A stretch of DNA of 10,810 nucleotides from a virus (IMGVR_UViG_2917886563_000002); one strand, 5' to 3'; numbered from the stretch's first letter, positions 1-10,810 are shown. Translations and numbers: made by a program. Notes: a model not told the origin generated them from the letters alone.

Positions 1-470
<470 letters not shown>

Positions 471-507
471 AATGTCACCTGTTTTGACTATGAGGTGATG
501 ATATCAC

Positions 508-543
508 CTCTATTCAGGTGGCCAAATTTACTATGCCACTACA
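508..543 (-). repeat. Terminal inverted repeat of the IS911-like element (outer end at 543)
   Basis: Lies upstream of the OrfA start; outer end TG (minus) / CA (plus) at 542-543; internal GAGGTGAT/ATCACCTC palindrome at 492-510. Confidence 0.7.
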
Positions 544-599
544 AATAAAACTATATTAGATTATTAATTAGATCATAATAATAATATTCTTTATATCTA

Positions 600-790
600 T
601 ATATATGATCTTTTGCCTTCCGGCGTTAGCTTCACTCCCTGGCAAGCAGCCTTACTCCGCTACCTTTGGGCTACGTTGGCTGGCCCGTTCCGCTCACACC
701 GAAAGCAAAGCGTTACTTTCTTCGTGTAACTATCGTGGCGGTAACGCCCACGAAGAAATACTATTGCGCTGTGCGCAGTAAGAGTAATCA
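600..790. other. GC-richer non-coding segment with nested inverted repeats, unassigned (candidate structured RNA or remnant of a disrupted locus)
   Basis: No ORF of useful length on either strand; local G+C clearly higher than the surrounding AT-rich DNA; contains the 10-bp arm inverted repeat at 713-762. Confidence 0.3.
713..762. repeat. Perfect 10-bp inverted repeat TTTCTTCGTG ... CACGAAGAAA with 30-nt spacer
   Basis: Read directly: tttcttcgtg at 713-722 and cacgaagaaa at 753-762. Confidence 0.7.
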
Positions 791-893
791 CCTAACCAAT
801 CATACTGATTGCTTACGTGTTAACTCTCTCTAACTCTTAATTACCCTCCTACATTTAATAACTCTCGTTATTCTCTGTAGTCGTGTAATTGTT

Positions 894-925
894 TTCGGTG
901 GAAAAGCCAGAGGCGACACCGAAAG
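894..925. repeat. 8-bp inverted repeat TTTCGGTG ... CACCGAAA, related in sequence to the 713-762 hairpin arms
   Basis: tttcggtg at 894-901 and caccgaaa at 918-925; the decamer ACACCGAAAG occurs at 696-705 and again at 916-925. Confidence 0.6.
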
Positions 926-934
926 AGAATTCTG

Positions 935-1000
935 ATCTTATTAATCTTATCTATCTTAGTTAATCTTCTTACTTATCTTACTTACTTTATCTACTTTATT
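935..1000 (+). repeat. Pyrimidine-rich tract with periodic ATCTTA hexamers (iteron-like array)
   Basis: ATCTTA at 935, 944, 953 and 975, with degenerate copies (ATCTTC, CTTACT, ATCTAC) between and after; spacing of 9 bp for the first three. Confidence 0.5.
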
Positions 1001-1507
1001 ATTAATAATAGCTTTATAAGCTCTGTGTAGCTCTCTGACGCAAGAAACAGCATTCAGGAAGGGAATCACCTTAGAAAAGGTGTTCTTTGCGTCATAATGT
1101 GTTTTATGAAGGATTCAGAGGTGTTTCATAACAGGAATGTATAGAGGATACTTTAATTAATTAAAAATAAGGGGTCTAAATGCTTCTCTAACAGCATTAA
1201 GCAGGGTAGGGAATGGAAACGCATTGTCTACATATAATAAGCTCACTACAGAGCTTTACAGAGCGTTTTTATAAAGTGACTCTCTATCTTATATCTACCA
1301 TTACCTTTTCATATACCTAACAAATACAAAATAAGCCCCTTAAATAAGCCTCTGGCGAGCTAAACAGCCATTACATAAGGGAATGTATTGCTTTTATCAA
1401 AATCTCGTTATAACGCGTTTTAGACAATAATGAAGAATGGCACTACACAGAAGAGCACGAGTTGCTCGTAAGTGCATGAAAAAGATCGATTTTTTTCGGA
1501 AGGGGTA

Positions 1508-1536
1508 TTGACAAACGTCTCTTTCTGTGCAATAAT
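1508..1536 (+). promoter_or_regulatory. Sigma70-type promoter candidate (TTGACA, 17-bp spacer, TGcAATAAT extended -10)
   Basis: ttgaca at 1508-1513; aataat at 1531-1536 preceded by tg at 1528-1529; AT-rich upstream; imperfect palindrome GCACGAGttgCTCGTaaGTGC at 1455-1475. Confidence 0.55.
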
Positions 1537-1590
1537 AGGAATTAGAGGGGACAGGAATAGATTCTTATCCTCTAAATAATTAAACCAATG

Positions 1591-1634
1591 CACCGCACTT
1601 TGAAGCCCAAGGCTTGCAAGGTGTTTTTTCTTTT
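1591..1634 (+). terminator. GC-rich stem-loop followed by T6CT4 run in the 5' leader of the first cargo gene (intrinsic terminator or attenuator candidate)
   Basis: CACCGCA...TGCaaGGTG pairing at 1591-1623 with inner AAGCC/GGCTT hairpin, then ttttttctttt at 1624-1634; lies between the 1508-1536 promoter and the SD at 1648-1654. Confidence 0.45.
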
Positions 1635-1661
1635 AACCAAATAGAATAAGGAGGCTAATTA

Positions 1662-1838
1662 ATGAAATATTTTACTCCACAGGATGTAGTAGAAGCCTGG
1701 AAACGTGGTGAGATCAACCGCTTTAAAGTAAGGATGTATAGAAACACCGCTCGCCGTTGTGGTTATCCAGAGCGTGAAAAATGTTTTGACGATGCACTGA
1801 AAATTATTGATGAACTGCGTAAAGCTGAGAAAGAATAA
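1662..1838 (+). CDS. Small basic hypothetical protein (58 aa), absent from the supplied ORF track
   Basis: ATG at 1662 preceded by AAGGAGG (1648-1654); hand translation MKYFTPQDVVEAWKRGEINRFKVRMYRNTARRCGYPEREKCFDDALKIIDELRKAEKE, stop TAA at 1836-1838. Confidence 0.6.
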   Translation: MKYFTPQDVVEAWKRGEINRFKVRMYRNTARRCGYPEREKCFDDALKIIDELRKAEKE

Positions 1839-1860
1839 TAGACAAGAGAAGGAGAAAACT

Positions 1861-2028
1861 ATGAGCGAAACTAAGAAACCAATTCCGCGCACTTACCTAC
1901 ACGTTGACCCTGAAATCTTCAAGGTTTTATTTGCTGAAGCCAAGAAAAGGCAAATTATGGTCAGTGATTTGATGTTAGAAATCATTACTGAAGCAGCAGA
2001 GAACATCAAACAAAAAAAGGGTAAGTGA
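1861..2028 (+). CDS. Small DNA-binding protein, ribbon-helix-helix-like (55 aa)
   Basis: ATG at 1861 with GAAGGAGA SD 5 nt upstream (the track's 1807 start lacks an SD). MSETKKPIPRTYLHVDPEIFKVLFAEAKKRQIMVSDLMLEIITEAAENIKQKKGK shows a polar/hydrophobic alternating strand (RTYLHV) followed by two helices, the RHH pattern. Confidence 0.6.
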   Translation: MSETKKPIPRTYLHVDPEIFKVLFAEAKKRQIMVSDLMLEIITEAAENIKQKKGK

Positions 2029-2079
2029 TCCTCATTCACTTTAGTAGCGCATTAAGCGTGATTTATAAGGAGATTTTTA

Positions 2080-2769
2080 ATGATTAATCAACTAACTTTT
2101 ACAAAACACTATGACACGTTTGATAATGTATCAAAGATTTATTCTGATAAATTCCCTCAAGGAAAAGATTTAGATCTATTACATATTGTGCTTTATTTTC
2201 GATTCCTTAGTTATCAGGAAAACAACCTTAATTGTTATGAAAGTCACGAAACATTAGCTAAGATTTTTAAGTCTTCAGCGTCAACAATTAAACGTAAGAT
2301 AAACGATCTTAAAGAGATGGGATTATTAGAAACATCCCCACATCCTGATCCGTATATTTCATCTTTGATTTACAATGCTCTCCCTCTCACAGATGCACAT
2401 ATTACTCCCCCAGGAGAATCATCACTCTCTGATCTTTCTGAGGCAGAAGAAGCACAGGAACAACCTAAAGGCCATAAACAGCCTTCTTTTGATGCTCTTG
2501 ATGATTGGGATACGCCTTTACCCTGGGAGATGGAAGAAACACCTGTTTCATCAAGTGAAAAGGTAGCTAATGATAATGAGGAGGATGTGTTAAAGAATTT
2601 TGCCTCTCTTATCATCCAGGAGAAACACACAAGAACAGGAGGAGCATCATTTATTGAGTTTGCAAATTCACTAGCTTGTAGATACGGGCTAAAACGACCA
2701 AATGGTATTGAGGCATATTTTGCTAAGAAACATCCCAAAGTATATGAAGACTTTGATATTCCATTTTAA
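2080..2769 (+). CDS. Hypothetical protein with N-terminal winged-HTH-like domain, acidic Pro-rich linker and C-terminal domain (229 aa)
   Basis: SD AAGGAG 7 nt upstream; N-terminus ...LHIVLYFRFLSYQENNLNCYESHETLAKIFKSSASTIKRKINDLKEMGLLE has the look of a wHTH of phage/plasmid replication or regulatory proteins. Confidence 0.8.
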   Translation: MINQLTFTKHYDTFDNVSKIYSDKFPQGKDLDLLHIVLYFRFLSYQENNLNCYESHETLAKIFKSSASTIKRKINDLKEMGLLETSPHPDPYISSLIYNALPLTDAHITPPGESSLSDLSEAEEAQEQPKGHKQPSFDALDDWDTPLPWEMEETPVSSSEKVANDNEEDVLKNFASLIIQEKHTRTGGASFIEFANSLACRYGLKRPNGIEAYFAKKHPKVYEDFDIPF

Positions 2770-2780
2770 TAAGGAGGGTT

Positions 2781-3059
2781 ATGATTCAATATTTAGTAAA
2801 AAATCAAGTAGACAGAATTCAGTGTAATGACACAGGAAAACGCATCTACGAGACACTTGCTTACCTCTATAAAGGAAAGCCAACACCGCTAAAATATAGC
2901 GATGTGTTACATCGAGCAGGTTGCTCTGAAGCTGGTTTAAAATTCTGGCTGAAACAGCTATCAGATTTCGGTGTTATAGAGATTAAAGAATTATCTTTCT
3001 CTACATTCAATCTCAAAAGATTAGATAAAGAAATAGACTTCATCTATTCCACTCTCTAA
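2781..3059 (+). CDS. Small winged-HTH-like protein (92 aa), paralogous in pattern to the N-domain of the 2080-2769 product
   Basis: SD AAGGAGGG immediately upstream; ...RIYETLAYLYKGKPTPLKYSDVLHRAGCSEAGLKFWLKQLSDFGVIEI. Confidence 0.7.
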   Translation: MIQYLVKNQVDRIQCNDTGKRIYETLAYLYKGKPTPLKYSDVLHRAGCSEAGLKFWLKQLSDFGVIEIKELSFSTFNLKRLDKEIDFIYSTL

Positions 3060-3100
3060 AATCTCTCTATGTAATTAAAATATAAAAGGAAAACATTATT

Positions 3101-3247
3101 ATGATAGTAGCTATGTATTGGTTATTGTTCTTTCTCACGTTAGAAGCATATTTCGGGGTGTTTTCCTTTAAAAGAAAAGGAAAAGTAAATGGCAAAAAGA
3201 AAAAAACAACGTTGTTAAGAAGATCGGTGATTCAGCTTCTCTTCTAA
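3101..3247 (+). CDS. Small predicted membrane peptide (48 aa): hydrophobic N-terminus, Lys/Arg-rich C-terminus; possibly the 5' part of a longer frameshifted gene
   Basis: ATG at 3101 with AAGGA about 10 nt upstream; hand translation MIVAMYWLLFFLTLEAYFGVFSFKRKGKVNGKKKKTTLLRRSVIQLLF; not in the ORF track. Confidence 0.4.
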   Translation: MIVAMYWLLFFLTLEAYFGVFSFKRKGKVNGKKKKTTLLRRSVIQLLF

Positions 3248-3360
3248 GTAAACCTAAATCTATTCTAAGACGCAAAGACTTTAAAGAGCTAGTTACGCTC
3301 ACCAAGCAAAATAGCGCCCCTGGCGAATGGAAAACAGAGATCATAGAACATTCTCCCTCT

Positions 3361-3600
3361 GTGCCTTGTGGAGATGAATTTAACGCCTTACAAGAAATCT
3401 TATCTTCAACACCTGGCGTATTCTGGAAACCCAGGAAAAGAAAAGAGTATATCGTTGATAGCTCTGATTTACGCAAATACCAGATTTTAGGATTTGAAGA
3501 TTATAATCACTACGTTGGTTATCTCGCTACCAATGGCCTAAATAATTTAGTTCCAGAATTCCAGATTTTAGATAATGCTGATCACTATGGAGACTTTTAA
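3361..3600 (+). CDS. Hypothetical protein fragment; this frame is open from 3172 with no ATG and is probably the downstream part of a gene starting at 3101
   Basis: Track ORF starts at GTG 3361 with no SD; the same frame is stop-free back to 3172 and overlaps the 3101-3247 ORF across an A-run at 3194-3206. Confidence 0.35.
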   Translation: MPCGDEFNALQEILSSTPGVFWKPRKRKEYIVDSSDLRKYQILGFEDYNHYVGYLATNGLNNLVPEFQILDNADHYGDF

Positions 3601-3601
3601 T

Positions 3602-3940
3602 ATGAACAAAAACACGTATGACACAATTTACTCACTAATTAATTATTATGAGGATGATTACCTCCTGCCTTTAAACCGCGCTGAACTTGAAGCATACAAA
3701 GAAAACACGCCAGCGGCACTAAATGAGGCGTTTAAACACTGGGATTTAGCTGTGAATGCCTTTGAGCACCTCTCTAAGCGTGTAGAGATGCTCTGTAAGC
3801 GCGAAAACGCATATCTGACAGCCGATCAGATATGGGAGCTATCAAACTGGATAGAAGATATTGAATCTGATGTTCGCTATGTAGGGGATGGCCTTGTTGA
3901 ACTCGCACAACGCTTAGGCGCTGCTATCACAGAAGAATAA
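3602..3940 (+). CDS. Acidic hypothetical protein (112 aa from ATG 3602; the track's 3575 start is less likely)
   Basis: GGAG at 3590-3593 sits 8 nt before ATG 3602; product MNKNTYDTIYSLINYYEDDYLLPLNRAELEAYKENTPAALNEAFKHWDLAVNAFEHLSK... is strongly net acidic by hand count (about 22 D/E against 10 K/R). Confidence 0.65.
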   Translation: MNKNTYDTIYSLINYYEDDYLLPLNRAELEAYKENTPAALNEAFKHWDLAVNAFEHLSKRVEMLCKRENAYLTADQIWELSNWIEDIESDVRYVGDGLVELAQRLGAAITEE

Positions 3941-3969
3941 AAAAAGCAACAAAAAAGTTGTAAAATATC

Positions 3970-3998
3970 TTGACATTTCATATATTGTATGTTAATAT
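3970..3998 (+). promoter_or_regulatory. Sigma70-type promoter candidate (TTGACA, 17-bp spacer, TGtTAATAT)
   Basis: ttgaca at 3970-3975; taatat at 3993-3998 preceded by tg at 3990-3991. Confidence 0.5.
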
Positions 3999-4132
3999 AA
4001 TTATATAGGGGTGATTATTTTTCCTTTATTGGTTCGATATTAAAAATTCTTCTTGTCGTTAAAGGGGAGTAAAATCTCCGCTCCCCGCTTCTCCTCCTTA
4101 AGTAATACTGTGTCATACCTCTTTTTTCCTTT

Positions 4133-4162
4133 GTTATGCATACATCTTGGAGTGTGCATAAC
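4133..4162. repeat. Inverted repeat GTTATGCA ... TGCATAAC (operator-like), with a third GTTATGCA copy at 4211-4218
   Basis: gttatgca at 4133-4140, tgcataac at 4155-4162, gttatgca at 4211-4218; adjacent palindrome CAACTTaaAAGTTG at 4217-4230. Confidence 0.6.
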
Positions 4163-4176
4163 ATAGGGTAATTACA

Positions 4177-4207
4177 AAGGCGGCTTTAAATGCTGCCTTT
4201 TATTTTG
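4177..4207 (+). terminator. Stem-loop followed by T-rich run (intrinsic terminator or attenuator candidate)
   Basis: AAGGCGGC (4177-4184) pairs with GCTGCCTT (4192-4199) with one G-T wobble, loop tttaaat, then ttattttg. Confidence 0.45.
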
Positions 4208-4268
4208 CCCGTTATGCAACTTAAAAGTTGTATTTCTTACTTTAAACAAGGTAACAAGGTTTATATAA

Positions 4269-4481
4269 ATGTTGTTCTTAAATGATAAAGAGCAAATCAT
4301 CAAGTATAAAGATGAAATGCTGCGAATTACTCCACAAATTACCGAAATGGTAGCTAAATACGCTGGGTGTTCTGTCGAGGAAGTAGAAAGATGTGTTGAA
4401 AAATATTTTTCTCCTTCTTCTCCGTCTACACCTTCCCTTAATGAATTAATCAAATTAAAAGCTAAGGAGATTACTAAATGA
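4269..4481 (+). CDS. Small acidic hypothetical protein (70 aa)
   Basis: Track ORF; weak SD (AAGG about 10 nt upstream); its stop overlaps the next start (ATGA at 4478-4481), suggesting translational coupling. Confidence 0.55.
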   Translation: MLFLNDKEQIIKYKDEMLRITPQITEMVAKYAGCSVEEVERCVEKYFSPSSPSTPSLNELIKLKAKEITK

Positions 4482-4840
4482 TTATTGATTTAGACACTCT
4501 TTTTCCAGTTCGAAAGACTTTCACAGATATTGTAAGTTACTGTACTGATCCGTTTGCTTCTGTAGAAAGCAAGGTTTTTGCTTCTCTTCCTGCTGATGTT
4601 GAATGCGGAGACTTGATCACCAGCACGGGCGCTAAATATGAATCAGGAGATGATATCTATGTTGTTATGAGTGAATTTGTAACGGCAGGAGAAAACAAGC
4701 CTGTAGATGTGCTACGTAGCAATGCTGGCCTTGTGTGCATTAAAGCTGATGCGCTGAATGCTGTAAGTGAAGCAGCAAAAACAGCATTAATTAAAAAAGG
4801 CTTCCAGCTTGAAGGCTTTAACACGGTTTTCACTTCTTAA
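4478..4840 (+). CDS. Hypothetical protein (120 aa)
   Basis: SD AAGGAGA at 4463-4469; overlapping stop-start with the upstream gene; no family recognised. Confidence 0.7.
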   Translation: MIIDLDTLFPVRKTFTDIVSYCTDPFASVESKVFASLPADVECGDLITSTGAKYESGDDIYVVMSEFVTAGENKPVDVLRSNAGLVCIKADALNAVSEAAKTALIKKGFQLEGFNTVFTS

Positions 4841-4858
4841 TAAAAGGAATAATAATAA

Positions 4859-5887
4859 ATGATTCTAGGTAATGATTACGTTGATTTAGCTCCGCTTTTC
4901 CAGACACACAGCACGCGTAACTTTCTGCTCTCTACCCTCGACTTCACTGATCCGGTGGGCGTTAGTTCTCATAAAGTAGCTGTTTCCCAGCTTGTCGAAA
5001 GCAACGAATCTCTCTTTAACAAAGAGACAAGCCGTTTTAGTTCTGAACACAATGTTACTAAGCGAGAACAAGGTAAAGAATGGCTGATTGAAATCCCGTA
5101 TTTTCTTCGTGAGGATGTGATCCGTCCTTCTGATGTTCAAGGCAAGCGTAAGCCTGGCACTGATTTTCAGGAAACACTTACTGATATCTATGCTGACTAT
5201 GTTGCTAAACACCACGTAGCGTATCAGCGTACAAAAGAGAGCGTGTTGGCGGCTTCTTTGTTCTCTGGCAAAACTTACACGCCTAAAACTGACGATGTGT
5301 TAATTGAGTGGGGCAAGCTGTTTAACGTATCAGCTATGAAAGCCACTGTTAACGCCTCCAGCACTGACACCACGAAGATTTTTAAAGAATTTGATCAGAT
5401 TGCTACTGACATTATCGAAAAAGCACAAAGCCAGGCGGCTGCTGTAGAGCGTATTGTTGTTTTCTGTAAGCCGGAAGCCTTCTCTGCAATTCGATTCTCT
5501 GCTGGTATGGCAAACGCATTCCAGTATGTAAGCCCACTGGAAGAGGGGAACGTTGTGTATCAGCGTCGTGACCTGCTACCAGGAGTGACAGCGTTCACTA
5601 TTCCAGGAACTAACATTGATGTTGTTAAACTGGTAGATCCGCTACACCTGGCACATATGACCGCAGACGCTGTAGCTGTGCCTAAATTCGCTAAAGGCTC
5701 TAACGTATATCAGAACATTTACGGGGCTGCTTCCAGCACTTTTGAACTGATTAATGCCGCTCCTGCTGAGGTGTATAGCTATAGCTATGAATCTTCTCGT
5801 GGTGATGCTGTTAACGTTGTTACAGAGAATAGCCAGATGGTGGTAAACCACGGCGTTGGCTTCTCCGTTCAAATCACTGTTAAATAA
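4859..5887 (+). CDS. Hypothetical protein (342 aa); candidate structural (capsid-like) protein, unverified
   Basis: SD AAGGA upstream; long ORF with protein-like composition and no signal peptide; followed by the strongest terminator in the window; paired with a 120-aa upstream gene. Confidence 0.8.
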   Translation: MILGNDYVDLAPLFQTHSTRNFLLSTLDFTDPVGVSSHKVAVSQLVESNESLFNKETSRFSSEHNVTKREQGKEWLIEIPYFLREDVIRPSDVQGKRKPGTDFQETLTDIYADYVAKHHVAYQRTKESVLAASLFSGKTYTPKTDDVLIEWGKLFNVSAMKATVNASSTDTTKIFKEFDQIATDIIEKAQSQAAAVERIVVFCKPEAFSAIRFSAGMANAFQYVSPLEEGNVVYQRRDLLPGVTAFTIPGTNIDVVKLVDPLHLAHMTADAVAVPKFAKGSNVYQNIYGAASSTFELINAAPAEVYSYSYESSRGDAVNVVTENSQMVVNHGVGFSVQITVK

Positions 5888-5905
5888 TATTTTAACGTGT
5901 AATAG

Positions 5906-5945
5906 AGGCGTGGCGTGTATTCACGCTTCGCCTTTTTTTATTTAT
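5906..5945 (+). terminator. Rho-independent terminator
   Basis: AGGCGTGGCGTG (5906-5917), loop tatt, CACGCTTCGCCT (5922-5933), then ttttttatttatttttt. Confidence 0.75.
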
Positions 5946-5973
5946 TTTTTAAGTTTTGAGAGGTGATTAAAAT

Positions 5974-6177
5974 ATGGAAGTGATTTTGAAATCAAAAAAT
6001 GGTGTACACGTACATTTAGATGCTAATGATTCTAGAGGCTTGTTAAATCTGAAATATCTATGTTCTCTTTTAGATGTTCCCTATGAAGGCGTAAAAGCCC
6101 GTATGTTCAGATTAAACGAGAGTATTGATCAGGCTCTACACCATTTCTTAAGCAAAGAAGGTGGTAAAAATGATTAA
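5974..6177 (+). CDS. Small hypothetical protein (67 aa)
   Basis: SD GAGGTGA 7 nt upstream of ATG 5974; stop 6 nt before the SD of the next gene. Confidence 0.6.
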   Translation: MEVILKSKNGVHVHLDANDSRGLLNLKYLCSLLDVPYEGVKARMFRLNESIDQALHHFLSKEGGKND

Positions 6178-6191
6178 TAAGGGGATTTTAA

Positions 6192-8024
6192 ATGTTAGAA
6201 ATTAACACTTCCAAGATTAAAAATACAGTAACATTTACTGTAGATAAAGACAGCTTGAAAAAAGCGAAAGACTCTATTACAGGCTTAAAGGAATTCGCAG
6301 AGAACATCAAGCCAGCTAAATTAAGATTTGATAGTGTCACTAAAGGCTATAAGAAAGCACAAAGCGAAGTAGACAAGATTGCTCAACAGAAAGCTAAAAC
6401 AGAAAAGCAAAATCAAAGAGCACAAGCTGCCGCAGCAAGAGCACAGGCAAGGCAACAGCAACAAATAGCAGCACGTAAGGAGAAGGCAAACTTAAAACTG
6501 TTAGACGTTGGATCAAGCATTAGTGCATTGCACCGCCTCTCTGTAGCGGAACAATACAAAGCTATTGCACAGGCTAGAGAGATAGCGAAACAATATGAGC
6601 AAGGGGCTATCTCGCTTGCACGTATGAATAGCCAGATGAAACGCTTACAACAGCAACAACGTAAGATTAATGGCAATAGAAAAACTCAATTAGCCCCCGT
6701 TAAGGGAGGAGGATCAGGGAATGCCGCCACTATGGGCGCTCTGTTATTTGGAGGCGCTACGGCTGCTGCTGGCGTGATGGCTGTTAGTAAAACCTCTGAA
6801 TTTATGGCTAACAGCTTTGCGAATGCTGAAACACAAGGCGAGCTAATTCAACGTGCAAGGCTTGGCGGTGTAGACGTTAACCAGATGTATAATATTACAG
6901 AATGGGCCTATAGAAACGGGATCGACTCTATGATGGGTGATCAAGGGGCTAGGAAATACCTGGATCAGATGAAAGATGTTAGGGAACGTGCCGCAAAATC
7001 CTATAGTGAAGCTGAATTAGTGAAAGATAAGAAAACAGGAAAATCTGAATGGAAAGGCGGTGATAACGCTATTAATGAACTTCTAAACATCGGTGTTATT
7101 AACAAAAGCGACCTTAAAAAATTTGCTGATAATCCAGCCGGATTAATTTCTAAGGCTGTTAATGGAATGATGAAAAAAGGGTTTTCAGACTCCCAAATTG
7201 GACAACGTTTAGAAGACCTGGGCGATGATTTGATGCTTACGTCAAAATATTGGCAACGTTCCGTTAAAGATGTACAAGAAAGCATTAACCAGCAAAAAGC
7301 CGCCGGACAATGGCTAACAGAAACACAGCAAGACTCTATTGTTAAATTCAGAGAACTAAACAGACAGCTTTCACAGCTTTCTGATGCAAGACAAGTAGCA
7401 TTCGTAGACGGCTTTATGAAATCTCTTGATCCAAAAGTAACGGAAGAGTTTATGAAAAACCTTTCTAATCTCACTCCGTATTTTACGAAGCTGGGAGAAG
7501 CTACAGGAAGTCTCTTTGAAGCCATTATGAAGATTGTAAACTGGTTTAATCGTAATGATGATAAGACAGATGCTATTCAGAAAAATATGGGTGATGCACC
7601 GCCACTATCTAACGATGGAATGAAACAGAATCTTTCTAACCTCGTTCCTGACCAATATAAAGGCGCTGGCACTGCAACAACTACACCTGATAATAGTCGT
7701 TCTCTCTTTAACACGATTAAGGGATTGCTTTTTGATGATAATTCTTCTGTGTCAGATGTAAAAATGTCAGTCAATGAAGCACCGATAACCAATCTCAAAC
7801 AGGGTGCTTTAAATAATCTTGCAATGACAACTCCGGCTTATAATTTATCTCCTGTGTTTAATCTGAATCCAACGTTTGAAGTGGTAACAGAGGTTCCGCT
7901 TACTATTAATTCTGACACGTCCAGATTAAGTGATTATGTGGATTTTACAGCGAGAGCAAGTCGGGATATCTTCTTGAAATCATTAACATTAACCAGCTTA
8001 TCAGGACAATCTAACGGCGGGTAA
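6192..8024 (+). CDS. Large hypothetical protein (610 aa): Gln/Ala-rich coiled-coil-like N-region, Gly/Ala hydrophobic segment, Asn/Ser/Thr-rich C-terminus; tape-measure-like or scaffold-like, unverified
   Basis: SD AAGGGGA upstream; segments ...KTEKQNQRAQAAAARAQARQQQQIAARKEKANLK... and ...GGGSGNAATMGALLFGGATAAAGVMAVS...; no signal peptide. Confidence 0.8.
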   Translation: MLEINTSKIKNTVTFTVDKDSLKKAKDSITGLKEFAENIKPAKLRFDSVTKGYKKAQSEVDKIAQQKAKTEKQNQRAQAAAARAQARQQQQIAARKEKANLKLLDVGSSISALHRLSVAEQYKAIAQAREIAKQYEQGAISLARMNSQMKRLQQQQRKINGNRKTQLAPVKGGGSGNAATMGALLFGGATAAAGVMAVSKTSEFMANSFANAETQGELIQRARLGGVDVNQMYNITEWAYRNGIDSMMGDQGARKYLDQMKDVRERAAKSYSEAELVKDKKTGKSEWKGGDNAINELLNIGVINKSDLKKFADNPAGLISKAVNGMMKKGFSDSQIGQRLEDLGDDLMLTSKYWQRSVKDVQESINQQKAAGQWLTETQQDSIVKFRELNRQLSQLSDARQVAFVDGFMKSLDPKVTEEFMKNLSNLTPYFTKLGEATGSLFEAIMKIVNWFNRNDDKTDAIQKNMGDAPPLSNDGMKQNLSNLVPDQYKGAGTATTTPDNSRSLFNTIKGLLFDDNSSVSDVKMSVNEAPITNLKQGALNNLAMTTPAYNLSPVFNLNPTFEVVTEVPLTINSDTSRLSDYVDFTARASRDIFLKSLTLTSLSGQSNGG

Positions 8025-8057
8025 TTCCCGCCATAACATTACAAGGAAATTATTATT

Positions 8058-8768
8058 ATGGCGACGGCGGGAATTTTAACCATACGTGCAGCAAATACTC
8101 CAGAACAACACGTTCAGGCTGTTTACAAAGCAGAACAAGATATAAACTCTACAAAAAACGAAAATAGCAAAGCTAATAAAACAAAAGGAGAAAATGGATT
8201 TGCTATTGTCACCAGTGGGCTGGCATCTTCTGTAAGTGACGTTTATGAAAATTATATGGCGTTATCCTTTGACAGTGTTGACGATGTGAACGTGAGACGT
8301 TCGGCAGATGTCACAAGCTATCCTGTAGAAAATGGAGCTAATGTATCGGATCACGTTCAAGTTAAGAATAATAAGTTTGCTCTTAAAGGGCGTATCTCTG
8401 AAACACCGATTAAAAGCGATCCTGGCTTGTTAAAGAGTGCAGGGGTGAACGGGAACAGAAGATCATTAGCTATCGACTACCTGAATCAGATTATGGACAG
8501 TAGACAGCCTTTTCTTCTTGTTACAGAAAATAAAACTTTTGAGAACGTTGTTTTAACAGGCATCGAATACACAGAAGAGGCAAGCGAATCTCTGGTATTT
8601 GATTTGGAATTTGAGCAAATCAGATTAGTTTCTTATGGCACTGTAAACACTGTAGCTATCAAAACACAGCCATCTAAGAACATCGGGGCTAATATGAAAA
8701 AACGTGTTAACACTGAAAAAACAAGTGAAGGTGAAGACACTATTACTCCTGCCTTTAAGCAGGAATAG
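8058..8768 (+). CDS. Hypothetical protein (236 aa); possible virion or tail-associated protein, unverified
   Basis: SD AAGGA 10 nt upstream; immediately follows the 610-aa gene; a stem-loop follows the stop. Confidence 0.75.
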   Translation: MATAGILTIRAANTPEQHVQAVYKAEQDINSTKNENSKANKTKGENGFAIVTSGLASSVSDVYENYMALSFDSVDDVNVRRSADVTSYPVENGANVSDHVQVKNNKFALKGRISETPIKSDPGLLKSAGVNGNRRSLAIDYLNQIMDSRQPFLLVTENKTFENVVLTGIEYTEEASESLVFDLEFEQIRLVSYGTVNTVAIKTQPSKNIGANMKKRVNTEKTSEGEDTITPAFKQE

Positions 8769-8809
8769 CCGTAAACGCCTCTAAAACGCTCTGTAACGAT
8801 GTAATTATA

Positions 8810-8842
8810 AAAGAGGCTACCAATCTATGTTGAAGCCTCTTT
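8810..8842. terminator. Stem-loop between convergent genes (bidirectional terminator candidate)
   Basis: AAAGAGGCT (8810-8818) and AGCCTCTTT (8834-8842), 15-nt loop; T/A-rich flanks on both strands; lies between the 8058-8768 gene and the minus-strand recombinase. Confidence 0.4.
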
Positions 8843-8849
8843 ATTGCGT

Positions 8850-9848
8850 CTATGGCGTTGTTTTACGCCTTAAATTTGATTTTTTATTGATTGATAAGCC
8901 TTTCTCTATTTCAGGGTAGCGTAGAAGCTCAATATATTTTTTAAGCTCTACTGGAGAAGCTGCATTCTTGCTATATGTGCGGAATGTCTCTGTATTGCCG
9001 CGTGTATGGCCCAGGAGAAGGGCGATCCTGTCTTCTGGAATTTGATTTCGATCAAGAAGCTGTGCTACTCCGTGTCTCAGAGAATGAAACACCTTCCTTT
9101 CTGTTCCCTTTTCCCCTAAAGCCTTTCGTTTAGCTCTTGTAAATCTCTGCGTGTGCCACGTGGAACGTTTACCATCAGCACGCTCTGTAATGCTGGCGTG
9201 ATAGAACAAAAAGCCATTGTGAGGCTTTTCACGAAGAGATAACACCAACGGAGTGATAAGGCTATGTACAGGCACAAGACGTGCCGCAGCTTTCGTTTTT
9301 CCCTGTGTGATTTCAAAACACAGCACACCTTCGATCTCTTTCACATCGTCTATTGTGAGACTTGCTATCTCATTGATCCGCATACCTGTATATAAACCGA
9401 TAAGACACAAAGCCGTCATTTCTTTGTTTTCTGCTGAATTACCGGAAAATACTTGCAACACCTGCAATAGCTCTTTGTTAGAAAATGCCTCATAGCTCTC
9501 TCTACTTTGTGCCACATCAAGCCTATGCCCTCGCCAGGGGGAGAGCGCCCTTTCTGGCGCATCGTGGTAACGTGATGAAGCTAACTCCCATAGCTGGGCC
9601 ATTGGGCTGATATAATTTGCAATTGATTGTTGTGAAAGGGTTTTTTGCATGCGTTCTATCCAGCCTGTAACAGTGGTGCGGCTCACATCTTGCAATGCAA
9701 TATCAGGCTTTTTACGGTAGGAGAGAAACATCTCTACCGCTTTTCTTGCCTTAGCTAAAGTGGCTGGCTTCTTCTTCGTGCTGTTAATTGTCAGGTAGAT
9801 TTCAAGAATTTTAAGCAATGACGGACACGAAGACGCTGTATCTTGCAT
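8850..9848 (-). CDS. Tyrosine site-specific recombinase (integrase), 332 aa
   Basis: Catalytic-domain signature in order: Arg in ...LYTGMRINEIASL..., H-x-x-R in ...FHSLRHGVAQLL..., ...LLGHTRG..., and Tyr in ...TFRTYSK...; N-terminal region ...LEIYLTINSTKKKPATLAKARKAVEMFLSY... resembles a core-binding domain. Confidence 0.9.
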   Translation of the reverse strand: MQDTASSCPSLLKILEIYLTINSTKKKPATLAKARKAVEMFLSYRKKPDIALQDVSRTTVTGWIERMQKTLSQQSIANYISPMAQLWELASSRYHDAPERALSPWRGHRLDVAQSRESYEAFSNKELLQVLQVFSGNSAENKEMTALCLIGLYTGMRINEIASLTIDDVKEIEGVLCFEITQGKTKAAARLVPVHSLITPLVLSLREKPHNGFLFYHASITERADGKRSTWHTQRFTRAKRKALGEKGTERKVFHSLRHGVAQLLDRNQIPEDRIALLLGHTRGNTETFRTYSKNAASPVELKKYIELLRYPEIEKGLSINKKSNLRRKTTP

Positions 9849-9925
9849 TCTGGTAGCTGTTTTGGCGTATTTAGCCTTACTTCGTAACAGTTCCAGCGTG
9901 TTCTCTATTGTGCTGTTTACAGGAG

Positions 9926-10810
9926 TGATCTTGACCCGCTATCTCCGGACCGCTTTTGTATCTTAAGTTAACGATGCCCGCTGCCGCCGGTATTCCCTCG
10001 GAGAGTAATATCCCAGCGCGCTGTGCGGGTGGTTTTCATTGTAATGCGTGAACGCTGCTGCAAGGTTTTGCAGGGCTGTTCTCACATCCGGTTTTGGCAT
10101 GAACGCGATATAGTCTTCTTTCATCGTCTTCACGAACCGTTCGGCCATGCCATTACTCTGCGGACTGCTCACCGCTGTTGTACAGGGTTCAAGATTCAGC
10201 TCTCTGGCGAACCTCCGCGTTTCATGCGCAGTATACGCTGAACCGTTATCCGTCAACCACTGCACTGGTGTGTCCGGCAACCTGTCGCCGAAGCGCTTTT
10301 CCACCGACCTCAGCATCACATCCTGTACGGTCGAACTGTCGTAGCCTCCCGTGCTCGCTGCCCAGTCTATGGCCTCTCTGTCGCAGCAGTCCAGCGCGAA
10401 CGTCACCCGCAGTTTTTCACCGTTGTCGCAGCCGAACTCGAAGCCGTCTGAACACCAGCGCATATTGCTTTCTGCCACCGCGATTTTTCCCTTGTGTTCA
10501 CGCTTCGGTCGCTCTGGTTTGTCATGCAACAACAACAGGTTATGCTCGCTCATTATCCTGTAAAGTCGTTTGGCGTTCACCGGTGGCTCTCCCTCAGTGC
10601 GACGTTGCTTGCGCAGGATGCCCCACACGCGTCGATAACCATAACTCGGCATATCGCTGATGATATCGAGGATATCCGTCAGTATTTCAGCGTCTGCTTC
10701 GTCATTACGCCGGTTACAGCGCCTGTCCTGCCAGTCGGCAGAACGGTTAACTCGCAGTGACAGCTGCGCACGCGACACGCCCATGGTGCGGCTGACCAGG
10801 GCTATTCCCC
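9926..10810 (-). mobile_element. IS3-family insertion sequence, IS2-like, partial (OrfA side runs off the right window edge)
   Basis: Minus-strand end reads ...GGCGGCAGCGGGCATCGTTAACTTAAGATACAAAAGCGGTCCGGAGATAGCGGGTCAAGATCA, the same pattern as the IS2 right end as recalled; G+C rises at 9926; encodes an IS2 OrfB-like transposase. Confidence 0.88.
9963..10784 (-). CDS. IS3-family (IS2 group) transposase OrfB, DDE catalytic domain
   Basis: ...[13 protein letters not shown]...RWCSDGFEF...[13 protein letters not shown]...[11 protein letters not shown]...[11 protein letters not shown]...[12 protein letters not shown]; D, D and E motif residues present; frame continues upstream past 10784 toward the window edge. 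Confidence 0.92.

Follow-up and report, generated by a model that had tools for sequence, protein, structure and literature searches.

An enterobacterial integrative island with phi92-like virion genes, a candidate satellite of virulent myophages, and its copy truncated by two insertion sequences in Escherichia sp. E4736

INTRODUCTION

To our knowledge, few satellite systems of virulent phages have been described, mainly the phage-inducible chromosomal island (PICI)-like elements (PLEs) with phage ICP1 in Vibrio cholerae and the PICMIs (phage-inducible chromosomal minimalist islands). The PLE integrase is a large serine recombinase. In capsid-forming PICIs (cf-PICIs), the module for head and packaging is complete (portal, protease, terminase small subunit, head-tail connectors), tail genes are lacking, and the helpers are temperate; P4, whose helper P2 is also temperate, lacks capsid and tail genes, and its operon is controlled through transcription that terminates early in the leader. 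PLE is reported to remodel the coat protein of ICP1 with a scaffold, TcaP (PMC10002752). ICP1 in turn carries the T5orf172 nuclease Odn, which has an N terminus that copies RepA of PLE and cleaves the origin of PLE at the iterons (PMC8263062). PICMIs are described as minimal satellites of virulent vibriophages with a reduced gene content and without capsid-remodelling genes (PMC10803314). Here, we describe an integrative island of enterobacteria, part of which makes up nucleotides 544-9925 (the cargo) of the viral record IMGVR_UViG_2917886563_000002. This stretch of 10,810 bp, referred to below as the window, corresponds to the whole of contig PDHX01000033.1 from Escherichia sp. E4736 (draft assembly GCA_004745245.1), and the cargo lies in it between two insertion sequences (IS).

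From the comparisons described below, we consider it probable that the island is a satellite-type parasite of the Stephanstirmvirinae, the virulent myophages of the phi92/phAPEC8 type, that it also protects its host, and that the copy in the window has been disabled by the two IS. Since phages carry nucleases made from the island's own origin-binding domains, the island is probably a phage satellite that has not been described before; searches of the literature accessible without subscription returned no account of such islands or of any satellite that exploits Stephanstirmvirinae.

RESULTS

DNA-binding domains of the island's initiator recur in phage nucleases

Over its entire length, the cargo shows about 95% identity to a block found in 284 of 5,426 complete Escherichia coli genomes. 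It encodes a Rep-like initiator (Table 1) that matches the replication-initiation families PHROG 270, 428, and 391. The C-terminal half of Rep is common to the island variants, and the N-terminal DNA-binding domains are unrelated between them; each Rep variant goes with a repeat array of its own at the left arm's inner end. This covariation is the pattern expected of pairs of initiator and iterons. In intact islands, iteron-like arrays are stacked (5561-5987 in the APEC O1 locus L001 and 5443-5987 in the ST866 locus L002), with the repeats ATTACACAGGGAATAGAG, TGATACCCCTATCAA, ACCTAGGAAATGATTTCC, and GGGGGTAGGTCAYWGTGAGCTA. The innermost array alone fits the resident Rep type, and the outer ones look like relics of earlier swaps of the replication module.

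Copies of these DNA-binding domains were found in phage proteins. In gp184 of phage inny, gp154 of phage muut, and gp053 of phage Mt1B1_P17, a tandem pair of Rep-type DNA-binding domains precedes a nuclease domain of the GIY-YIG clan (MUG113/T5orf172-like), and Rep-nuclease fusions are present in six phage records. The first domain varies between the phages, and the second is always of the type found in island copy L014. The window's own Rep domain was in no phage record, the best match being one of 29% to inny. The nuclease domain matched PHROG 681 "endonuclease" with an E value of 3.9e-18, Pfam MUG113 exactly at the cut-off, and T5orf172 weakly; taken alone, it has relatives among the putative homing endonucleases that T5-like and other phages encode. 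The island iterons were absent from the genome of inny, and thus the Rep-nuclease proteins are unlikely to serve replication of the phage. We regard proteins of the gp184 type as candidates for origin-directed nucleases against the island, comparable to Odn of ICP1. Given the Odn-like design, they are taken as strong indirect evidence that the island replicates in cells infected by these phages, at a cost high enough to select for counter-measures.

The association extends to DNA. In inny and muut, an island gene for a protein of 55 aa lies directly upstream of the nuclease gene, and the DNA identity of 98 to 99.6% includes the intergenic spacer: nucleotides 1849-2078 of the window (230 bp) are 98% identical to inny, and 1849-2087 (239 bp) are 99.6% identical to muut. 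The 55-aa protein shares 100% of its residues with the phage homologue over 53 residues; it had no family match and reads as ribbon-helix-helix (RHH)-like from a sequence pattern recognized by eye. The G+C content of inny (37.4%) is near that of the cargo (39.1%). The near-identical patches are signs of a recent exchange of DNA between the island and these phages, and together with the captured Rep domains they indicate that island and phages share cells at present.

A block of 46 bp, GCTnGnTTGCGAGAGGTGCTTAACGCGATTTTCAGCGCCCCCCGAT, in the left arm of the island (L001 4746-4791) is 95% identical to part of a long noncoding region of inny (138,621-138,667). It is absent from the window. Ten fetched island loci and two IMG/VR contigs of phage length have its core of 27 nt (L001 4758-4784); the block is a candidate for a packaging, origin, or promoter signal. 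Shared 14-mers of island and phage were also considered as a signal and rejected, because they are many, yet in the number expected by chance.

The structural genes are a subset of a phi92-type virion module

The cargo encodes a lambda gpE-like major capsid protein (MCP), a tape-measure protein (TMP), and a Dit-like tail-tube initiator (Table 1). The MCP is 21 to 22% identical to that of Justusliebigvirus, and Phi92_gp124 was matched in the PDB with an E value of 2.3e-6. Homologues of the TMP were found in 134 of 50,697 phage records, and the matches listed (25 of the 134) are all from phages of 145 to 159 kb of the Justusliebigvirus/Phapecoctavirus kind; the TMP of a Klebsiella island matched 135 phage records. 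Also among the matches listed are records named "Campylobacter phage" (for example A150, 146 kb) with TMP genes of the Justusliebigvirus type; these may be phi92-like phages of E. coli with wrong host labels. The tube initiator is 62% identical to the tail tube initiator of phage EmilieFrey. In phi92, gp134 (a trimer) and gp135 (a hexamer), the counterparts of the two island tail proteins, form the central core of baseplate and tube (PMC13450770).

Similarity of the two tail genes to the phage is concentrated in short segments. The first 23 residues of the TMP match the phage protein, and the first 87 nt of the gene are 84 to 90% identical to phage DNA. At nucleotides 6192-6260 of the window, in the TMP gene, and at residues 11-33 of the tube initiator (window 8088-8160), the protein segments are identical or nearly so to those of the phage and the DNA is 84 to 90% identical, and the remainder of the two proteins is 26% and 62% identical. 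This suggests a conserved docking segment or a recent gene conversion.

The gene directly upstream of the MCP gene, orf120, probably encodes a distant homologue of the phage head cement protein. The profile of its family reached P0192 and P0193 (E ~3e-4), which match PHROG 2680 "head decoration," the family of the cement protein of Justusliebigvirus. Furthermore, the C terminus VFTS is the same as in the phage cement protein, and the homologous gene ends share 16 identical nt. A direct hhalign comparison of the orf120 family with the phage cement protein was not significant (3% probability), a PDB profile search gave no match, and the AlphaFold2 model from an alignment of 21 sequences was unusable (predicted local distance difference test score [pLDDT], 45). 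The order cement-MCP ... TMP-tube initiator is the same as in the phage, and by gene content and order the island has a subset of the phi92-type virion module. Just before the TMP gene stands orf67, at the position of a tail-assembly chaperone gene; it may be one by position alone, and no similarity to the phage open reading frame (ORF) at the same position was found.

Intact islands are integrated at thrW, and the window copy has lost both ends

The initial annotation of the window, made from the sequence alone, had proposed an integrative element with ends rearranged by IS and had pointed out that no tRNA gene or attachment site is visible. Indeed, a tRNA scan of the window was empty, and no att repeat was present in it. 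Comparison with relatives free of these IS, which the annotation had suggested, did recover the original borders. In APEC O1 and ST866, the block is downstream of proA-thrW. The last 25 nt of the tRNA-Thr gene, GTTCGACTCCTATTATCGGCACCAT, recur with 23 of 25 bases just past the gene for the 425-aa integrase in intact copies. These direct repeats of the thrW 3' end (25 to 28 nt) are spaced 12,245 bp apart in APEC O1 and 12,374 bp in ST866, which defines attL, attR, and an integrative element of 12.2 to 12.4 kb. The intact relatives are tRNA-integrating, tyrosine recombinase-bearing islands at thrW. With its mobility genes and its presence in a minority of genomes, the block is accessory and no part of a conserved core chromosome. 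In APEC O1 (L001 16037-21516), the island adjoins a truncated second integrase gene and the island of the vat autotransporter toxin, so that mobile elements stand in tandem at thrW. The integrase was the sole match in a search of a plasmid collection.

At the left IS, the window copy is without attL and 2.4 kb of the left arm, which is mostly noncoding and contains the iteron arrays; at the right IS, it is without attR and the first 68 codons of the integrase gene. The ORF of 332 aa listed for the integrase begins at an internal Met (9848); the intact gene of APEC O1 has 1,278 nt. Since attL, the iterons, the N terminus of the integrase, and attR are lost, the window copy alone should be unable to excise, integrate, or replicate. 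Alignment with APEC O1 and ST866 placed the left IS junction 13 nt from the expected position of the last iteron. To the right of this junction, a G+C-rich block (606-800) is conserved above the level of the neighbouring genes. Single-base insertions and deletions in it exclude a conserved ORF, and its predicted RNA fold was not significant against shuffled sequences on either strand (z -1.25 and -1.84), with no match in Rfam; an Rfam scan of the whole window with E values up to 1 returned no match at all. Next to this block, a sequence of 42 nt, CTACATTTAATAACTCTCGTTATTCTCTGTAGTYGTGTAATT, is present once in the window (~850-890) and twice, 124 nt apart, in ST866 (L002 6307-6348 and 6431-6472); about 90 nt extra relative to the window at ~850-890 are also present in the other aligned copies.

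Intact islands of complete E. coli genomes are similar to the window from 538-544 to 9923-9928, and the IS junctions of the window were found in none of these genomes. On the minus strand, the terminus of the left IS starts with TGTAGTGGC, and its orfA matched the NCBIfam model transpos_IS3 with an E value of 3.2e-15. The right IS begins at 9926 with TGATCTTGACCC; its orfB matched the same model with 7.2e-59 (199.9 bits; cut-off, 160) and the model of the IS2 TnpB subfamily with 1.6e-117, which is under the cut-off of that model. Therefore, the right element belongs to the IS2 group and is not IS2 itself. By these matches and by the termini read from the sequence, both elements belong to the IS3 family, which is defined by an orfA/orfB transposase with a DDE (rve) domain and by TG...CA ends; the contig contains only fragments of each. 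Since contig and window are the same, each IS copy also marks a break of the short-read assembly; sequence beyond either IS is outside the contig, and what looks like trapping between IS coincides with the stop of the assembly.

The cargo had been described as AT-rich between two IS of about half G+C. It is AT-rich for Escherichia, with 39.1% G+C compared with 48.3% in the left and 55.6% in the right IS; the estimate of one-third G+C was too low. In windows of 400 nt, the cargo ranged from 31.5 to 47%. The G+C content of Escherichia is about 50%. With a host of this composition, the cargo is the import, which settles the choice left by the annotation between foreign cargo and IS imported into an AT-rich host.

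Both operons have a promoter-leader-terminator layout

The one-directional gene arrangement noted before is borne out: 12 ORFs of the cargo are on the plus strand, with AGGAG-like ribosome-binding sites, and the recombinase gene alone is on the minus strand. The long noncoding stretches, at 544-1661 (1,118 nt), 3060-3222, and 3941-4268, and the two leaders with promoter and terminator were likewise found again. The promoters P1 and P2 (Table 1) are the two best sigma-70-like sites of the plus strand and are both in long intergenic regions, each with a hairpin after it. Promoter-like sites as such did not exceed the level of shuffled sequence (22 found, 23 expected), and terminator-like sites were in excess (19 found, 7.4 expected). 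The folds of the P2 leader (z -5.98) and of its terminator (z -4.75) stood out from those of shuffled sequences. Both promoter-terminator pairs are also present in relatives from Klebsiella and Serratia, where the sequences cannot be aligned; the leader copies of E. coli are too similar to each other for an analysis of covariation. A layout that is conserved without conserved sequence argues for function. We infer that the operons are controlled by termination and read-through, a type of control used by late operons of lambdoid phages and in P4 immunity.

The island family is widespread and under purifying selection

The family extends across the Enterobacterales; homologues of the MCP and orf120 were found in E. 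coli, E. albertii, Shigella, Citrobacter, Klebsiella, Enterobacter, Cronobacter, Kluyvera, Leclercia, Dryocola, Sodalis, and Serratia. Loci of Klebsiella, Serratia, and a metagenome have a common compact gene order: small ORFs with a Rep-like gene, then two ORFs that are conserved, and after a long intergenic region a small ORF, orf120, the MCP gene, a small ORF, a gene for a TMP-like protein of 610 to 629 aa, and an integrase gene in the opposite orientation. The core is conserved in Klebsiella, Citrobacter, Enterobacter, Cronobacter, and Serratia; integrases and insertion sites differ. A scan of a genome collection with one genome per species for the MCP returned one partial locus. A metagenome scaffold of 12.3 kb was considered as a free form of the element and rejected, since it includes chromosomal flank. 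The Klebsiella, Serratia, and metagenome relatives have a second short Phage_integrase ORF (183 to 205 aa) near the left end (L019 2968-3585, L022 3138-3689, and L027 264-845), which was not found in the Escherichia islands; it may be a leftover, a recombinase with an accessory role, or a piece of an adjacent element.

The ratio of nonsynonymous to synonymous substitution rates (dN/dS) between E. coli copies was 0.03 to 0.37 for all testable genes (0.085 for the MCP gene, 0.076 for orf120, and 0.027 for orf67). The island genes are under purifying selection, and this argues that the family is not a decaying prophage.

Small ORFs and remaining features

The coordinates of all features are given in Table 1. 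All ORFs other than orf125 align over the full length with their relatives. In orf125, a run of seven A (3200-3206), which has six A in all compared relatives, causes a +1 shift relative to the ATG at 3189; the gene is either a pseudogene or carries a homopolymer error of the draft assembly. It is conserved in the relatives from Klebsiella, with 55% identity, and Serratia, with 34%. For the small ORFs, scans with PADLOC, NCBIfam, and relaxed Pfam thresholds returned nothing usable.

Table 1. Features of the window, iteron types of the islands, and phage proteins with Rep-type domains (positions without a locus handle refer to the window; L-numbers are fetched loci)
Feature	Position	Strand	Remarks
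IS3-family fragment, left flank	1..543	-	Reaches contig end; orfA 159-470; terminal inverted repeat ends at ~543
AT-rich block	544..605	.	Adjoins iteron array (putative origin) on its right in intact relatives
G+C-rich noncoding block	606..800	.	Nearly invariant in alignment of 13 copies, above neighbouring genes
P1 site TTGACA-17-TG-AATAAT	1508-1536	+	First operon; short leader, hairpin 1595-1624 with U-run (region 1508..1636)
orf58, conserved small protein	1662..1838	+	59% identical in Klebsiella relative; dN/dS 0.16; no family match
55-aa RHH-like protein	1861..2028	+	Common to phages inny and muut
Rep-like initiator, 229 aa	2080..2769	+	N-terminal winged helix HTH_36 (Pfam, just under cut-off)
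orf92	2781..3059	+	95-97% identical in E. coli relatives; dN/dS 0.16; no family match
orf125 (~135 aa in relatives)	3189..3600	+	Frameshifted here; start cut off
orf112, conserved	3602..3940	+	dN/dS 0.11
P2 site TTGACA-17-TG-TAATAT	3970-3998	+	Structural operon; ~200-nt structured leader, terminator 4176-4200 (region 3970..4268)
orf70, first gene of structural operon	4269..4481	+	dN/dS 0.30
orf120, probable head cement (decoration) protein	4478..4840	+	Directly upstream of capsid gene, as in phi92-like phages
MCP (lambda gpE-like, HK97 fold class)	4859..5887	+	Pfam Phage_cap_E 1.7e-13; PHROG 29
Intrinsic terminator after capsid gene	5904..5945	+	z -5.25; also at same place in Serratia relative
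orf67, small conserved protein before TMP gene	5974..6177	+	40% identical in Klebsiella relative; dN/dS 0.027
TMP homologue, 610 aa	6192..8024	+	PHROG 16051 7e-53; PDB Phi92_gp134 3.6e-38 (gp134, 659 aa)
Tail-tube initiator (Dit-like), 236 aa	8058..8768	+	Pfam Dit_like 6.9e-29; PDB Phi92_gp135 8.6e-79
Tyrosine integrase, 5' truncated	8850..9925	-	Pfam Phage_integrase, Phage_int_SAM_5; 357 of 425 codons left
IS2-group (IS3-family) fragment, right flank	9926..10810	-	Reaches contig end; orfB 9963-10784
Iterons, window/APEC O1 type	L001 5905-5987		4 x GGGGGTAGGTCAYWGTGAGCTA
Iterons, island copy L008			5 x TGGATGTAACGAnAGGTTACA
Iterons, island copy L014			4 x ACCTAGGAAATGATTTCC
Iterons, island copy L018			5 x ACCCCCACAGAATTCTGTTA
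Iterons, island copy L006			4 x TACCCCTATCAAnnnTGATACCCCTA
Phage inny gp184	L003:3233-4336		Domain 1, 82% to L008 Rep over 178 aa (near identity inside the domain); domain 2, 91% to L014 Rep
Phage muut gp154	L043:2732-3730		Domain 1, 89% to L006 Rep; domain 2, 93% to L014 Rep
Phage Mt1B1_P17 gp053	L044:1114-2100		Domain 1, 99% to L040 Rep (82% to L018 type); domain 2, 85% to L014 Rep

DISCUSSION

How the island would exploit its helper

The island would, as a satellite of phi92/phAPEC8-type phages, work as follows. The tyrosine integrase would place the intact element at the 3' end of thrW. Both operons would have strong sigma-70-type promoters blocked by the leader terminator, so that expression would need read-through, presumably triggered by infection with the helper. 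The Rep-like initiator would bind the matching iterons of the left arm and amplify the element. The cement-like protein and the island's own MCP would build a shell for about 12 kb of DNA, together with portal, protease, and terminase of the helper, and the island's TMP and tube initiator would replace those of the helper in the core of helper-made tails. The phages would then strike back with chimeric nucleases that carry copies of the DNA-binding domains of the island's Rep.

Spelled out in full, the proposal is that of undescribed enterobacterial satellites of virulent T=13 phi92/phAPEC8-type myophages, which, in a manner without known precedent, form a shell of their own MCP and cement protein, re-equip the core of the contractile tail with their own TMP and tube initiator, swap Rep-iteron modules, and face two-domain phage nucleases directed against several origins, an E. 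coli counterpart of the PLE-ICP1 pair. For this complete picture, we see the chances as evenly balanced.

Several points weigh against a satellite of these phages. The MCP is merely 21 to 22% identical to that of the proposed helper, and that it works with portal and scaffold of the helper is an assumption. The assignment of orf120 as cement protein goes through a transitive weak match. A TMP of its own serves no evident purpose in a satellite, and the tube initiator occurs in the Escherichia lineage only, being absent from the relatives in Klebsiella and Serratia. Also, the Rep of the Klebsiella island is without a counterpart in the phages, and the nucleases may be homing endonucleases that have simply taken over domains from Rep. 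Scans with Pfam, PHROG, PADLOC, and NCBIfam found no terminase small subunit, portal, protease, or recognizable packaging-redirection gene, and no packaging signal was identified. Finally, the IMG/VR matches bear isolate-style contig names and look like predicted prophage regions, so they are not evidence of packaging.

Other explanations

The nearest competitor, which we regard as unlikely, is a non-transmissible island that interferes with phages: its divergent MCP, TMP, and tube initiator would poison the assembly of phi92-like virions, Rep and iterons would do no more than raise the gene dosage during infection, and the island would travel by other routes and never be packaged. An incomplete structural set without portal, protease, and terminase would suit such an island, as would the phage-identical N termini on divergent TMP and tube-initiator bodies, which are those of subunits that dock into the assembly of the helper, and the apparent counter-measures carried by the phages. 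Moreover, interference with tail assembly is a known type of defence (PMC11364771, PMC10884400). However, no PADLOC defence model was matched; the only similarities returned were weak ones of the helix-turn-helix of Rep to regulators of the CasR/Csa3 type, with no component of a system. The constrained pair of MCP and cement genes (dN/dS 0.08) and the size near 12 kb fit the building of a shell and a headful-type constraint better, and the integrase, the att repeats, and the occurrence in several genera and at several insertion sites imply an efficient vehicle. Since known satellites such as PLE both defend and spread, this explanation overlaps with the satellite one.

More doubtful still is an origin of the island from a temperate phage not yet known, as its satellite or as a defective form of it, with the links to the Stephanstirmvirinae going back to ancestral sharing and occasional recombination. 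An MCP with just 20 to 26% identity to any phage in the collection could be read in this way, and an integrase and a tRNA site are typical of temperate elements. However, homologues of the TMP and tube initiator were found, among the matches listed, in virulent phages of the phi92/phAPEC8 type only, the near-identical DNA patches and captured Rep domains point to cells shared now, and no prophage with closer genes was found among 5.8 billion protein clusters. We consider it very improbable that the island is a functionless remnant of a decaying prophage left between IS elements, as the cut ends and the frameshifted gene of the window copy might suggest, and for the family as a whole this is already contradicted by a compact 12-kb architecture with intact att repeats across hundreds of genomes and also in several genera, by purifying selection on all testable genes, by a regulatory architecture kept across lineages that cannot be aligned, and by Rep-iteron modules swapped as matched pairs.

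Implications

If the island is a satellite of these phages, the biology of virulent-phage satellites would extend to E. coli, Klebsiella, Citrobacter, Enterobacter, and Serratia, with the best genetic models. Phages of the phi92/phAPEC8 type are used against extraintestinal pathogenic and avian pathogenic E. coli (ExPEC and APEC) strains, and such a satellite would also concern phages under development for therapy. The island, which about 5% of the complete E. coli genomes carry (APEC O1 among them), could then lower the efficacy of therapy phages, and phage-borne nucleases that mimic Rep could predict which phages escape. An island with its own capsid and tail-core proteins and without portal or terminase would be a new solution to the problem of capsid size and virion hijacking, and the Rep-domain nucleases would be the second independent case of a phage turning the origin recognition of its parasite against the parasite. 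The practical message of the window itself is smaller: it would be a copy at a dead end, severed by two IS that lie where a draft contig stops.

Comparison with known systems

Like P4, the island is a tRNA-integrating element of about 11 to 12 kb with a tyrosine integrase, and its promoter-leader-terminator layout resembles leader termination in P4; no homologue of Sid, Psu, Delta, Epsilon, or the alpha primase-helicase was found in the cargo (Pfam, PHROGs). Nor did any cargo ORF show the PICI hallmarks Phage_AlpA, primase, helicase, or Pri-Rep (Pfam, PHROGs, NCBIfam). With the cf-PICIs it shares the format of an integrase-bearing island of 10 to 15 kb in Enterobacteriaceae that has its own capsid protein and needs a helper for part of the virion. 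It differs from them in having just an MCP and a cement-like gene from the head module, plus a TMP and a tube initiator, and in being related to virulent phages of 145 to 159 kb. The terminase small subunit, Ppi, and Rpp had no match in Pfam or PHROGs, with six small ORFs of the island being without a detectable family, one of which could be a divergent gene of this kind. Prophage genes (terminase, portal, tail tube or sheath, lysis) were found neither in the window nor in intact E. coli copies or the relatives from Klebsiella and Serratia. The PICMIs resemble the island as satellites proposed or shown to exploit virulent phages, whereas the island, with its 12 kb, has five structural or structure-linked genes.

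The closest likeness is to PLE and ICP1. Both are cases of a chromosomal island tied to a virulent myophage, of an initiator with a matching iteron origin, and of replication modules swapped between variants, and in both the phage has a chimera of the GIY-YIG superfamily (T5orf172 type) whose DNA-binding part copies the initiator of the island (PMC8263062). The two systems differ in that no sequence homology to PLE proteins was seen, the island's Rep is HTH_36/phage O-like and not RepA_N, the host is Escherichia, a tyrosine recombinase integrates the island at a tRNA gene, and the island has its own MCP, cement-like protein, TMP, and tube initiator. The phage nucleases differ from Odn in their two tandem Rep-type domains, with 82 to 99% identity to the island compared with 42% for Odn. 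A PLE-like way of working thus fits at the level of sequence; the resemblance is one of function and architecture, from which we infer the behaviour of the island. It stands outside the definitions of PICI, cf-PICI, P4-like elements, and PLE, and of all these systems, it appears to work most like PLE.

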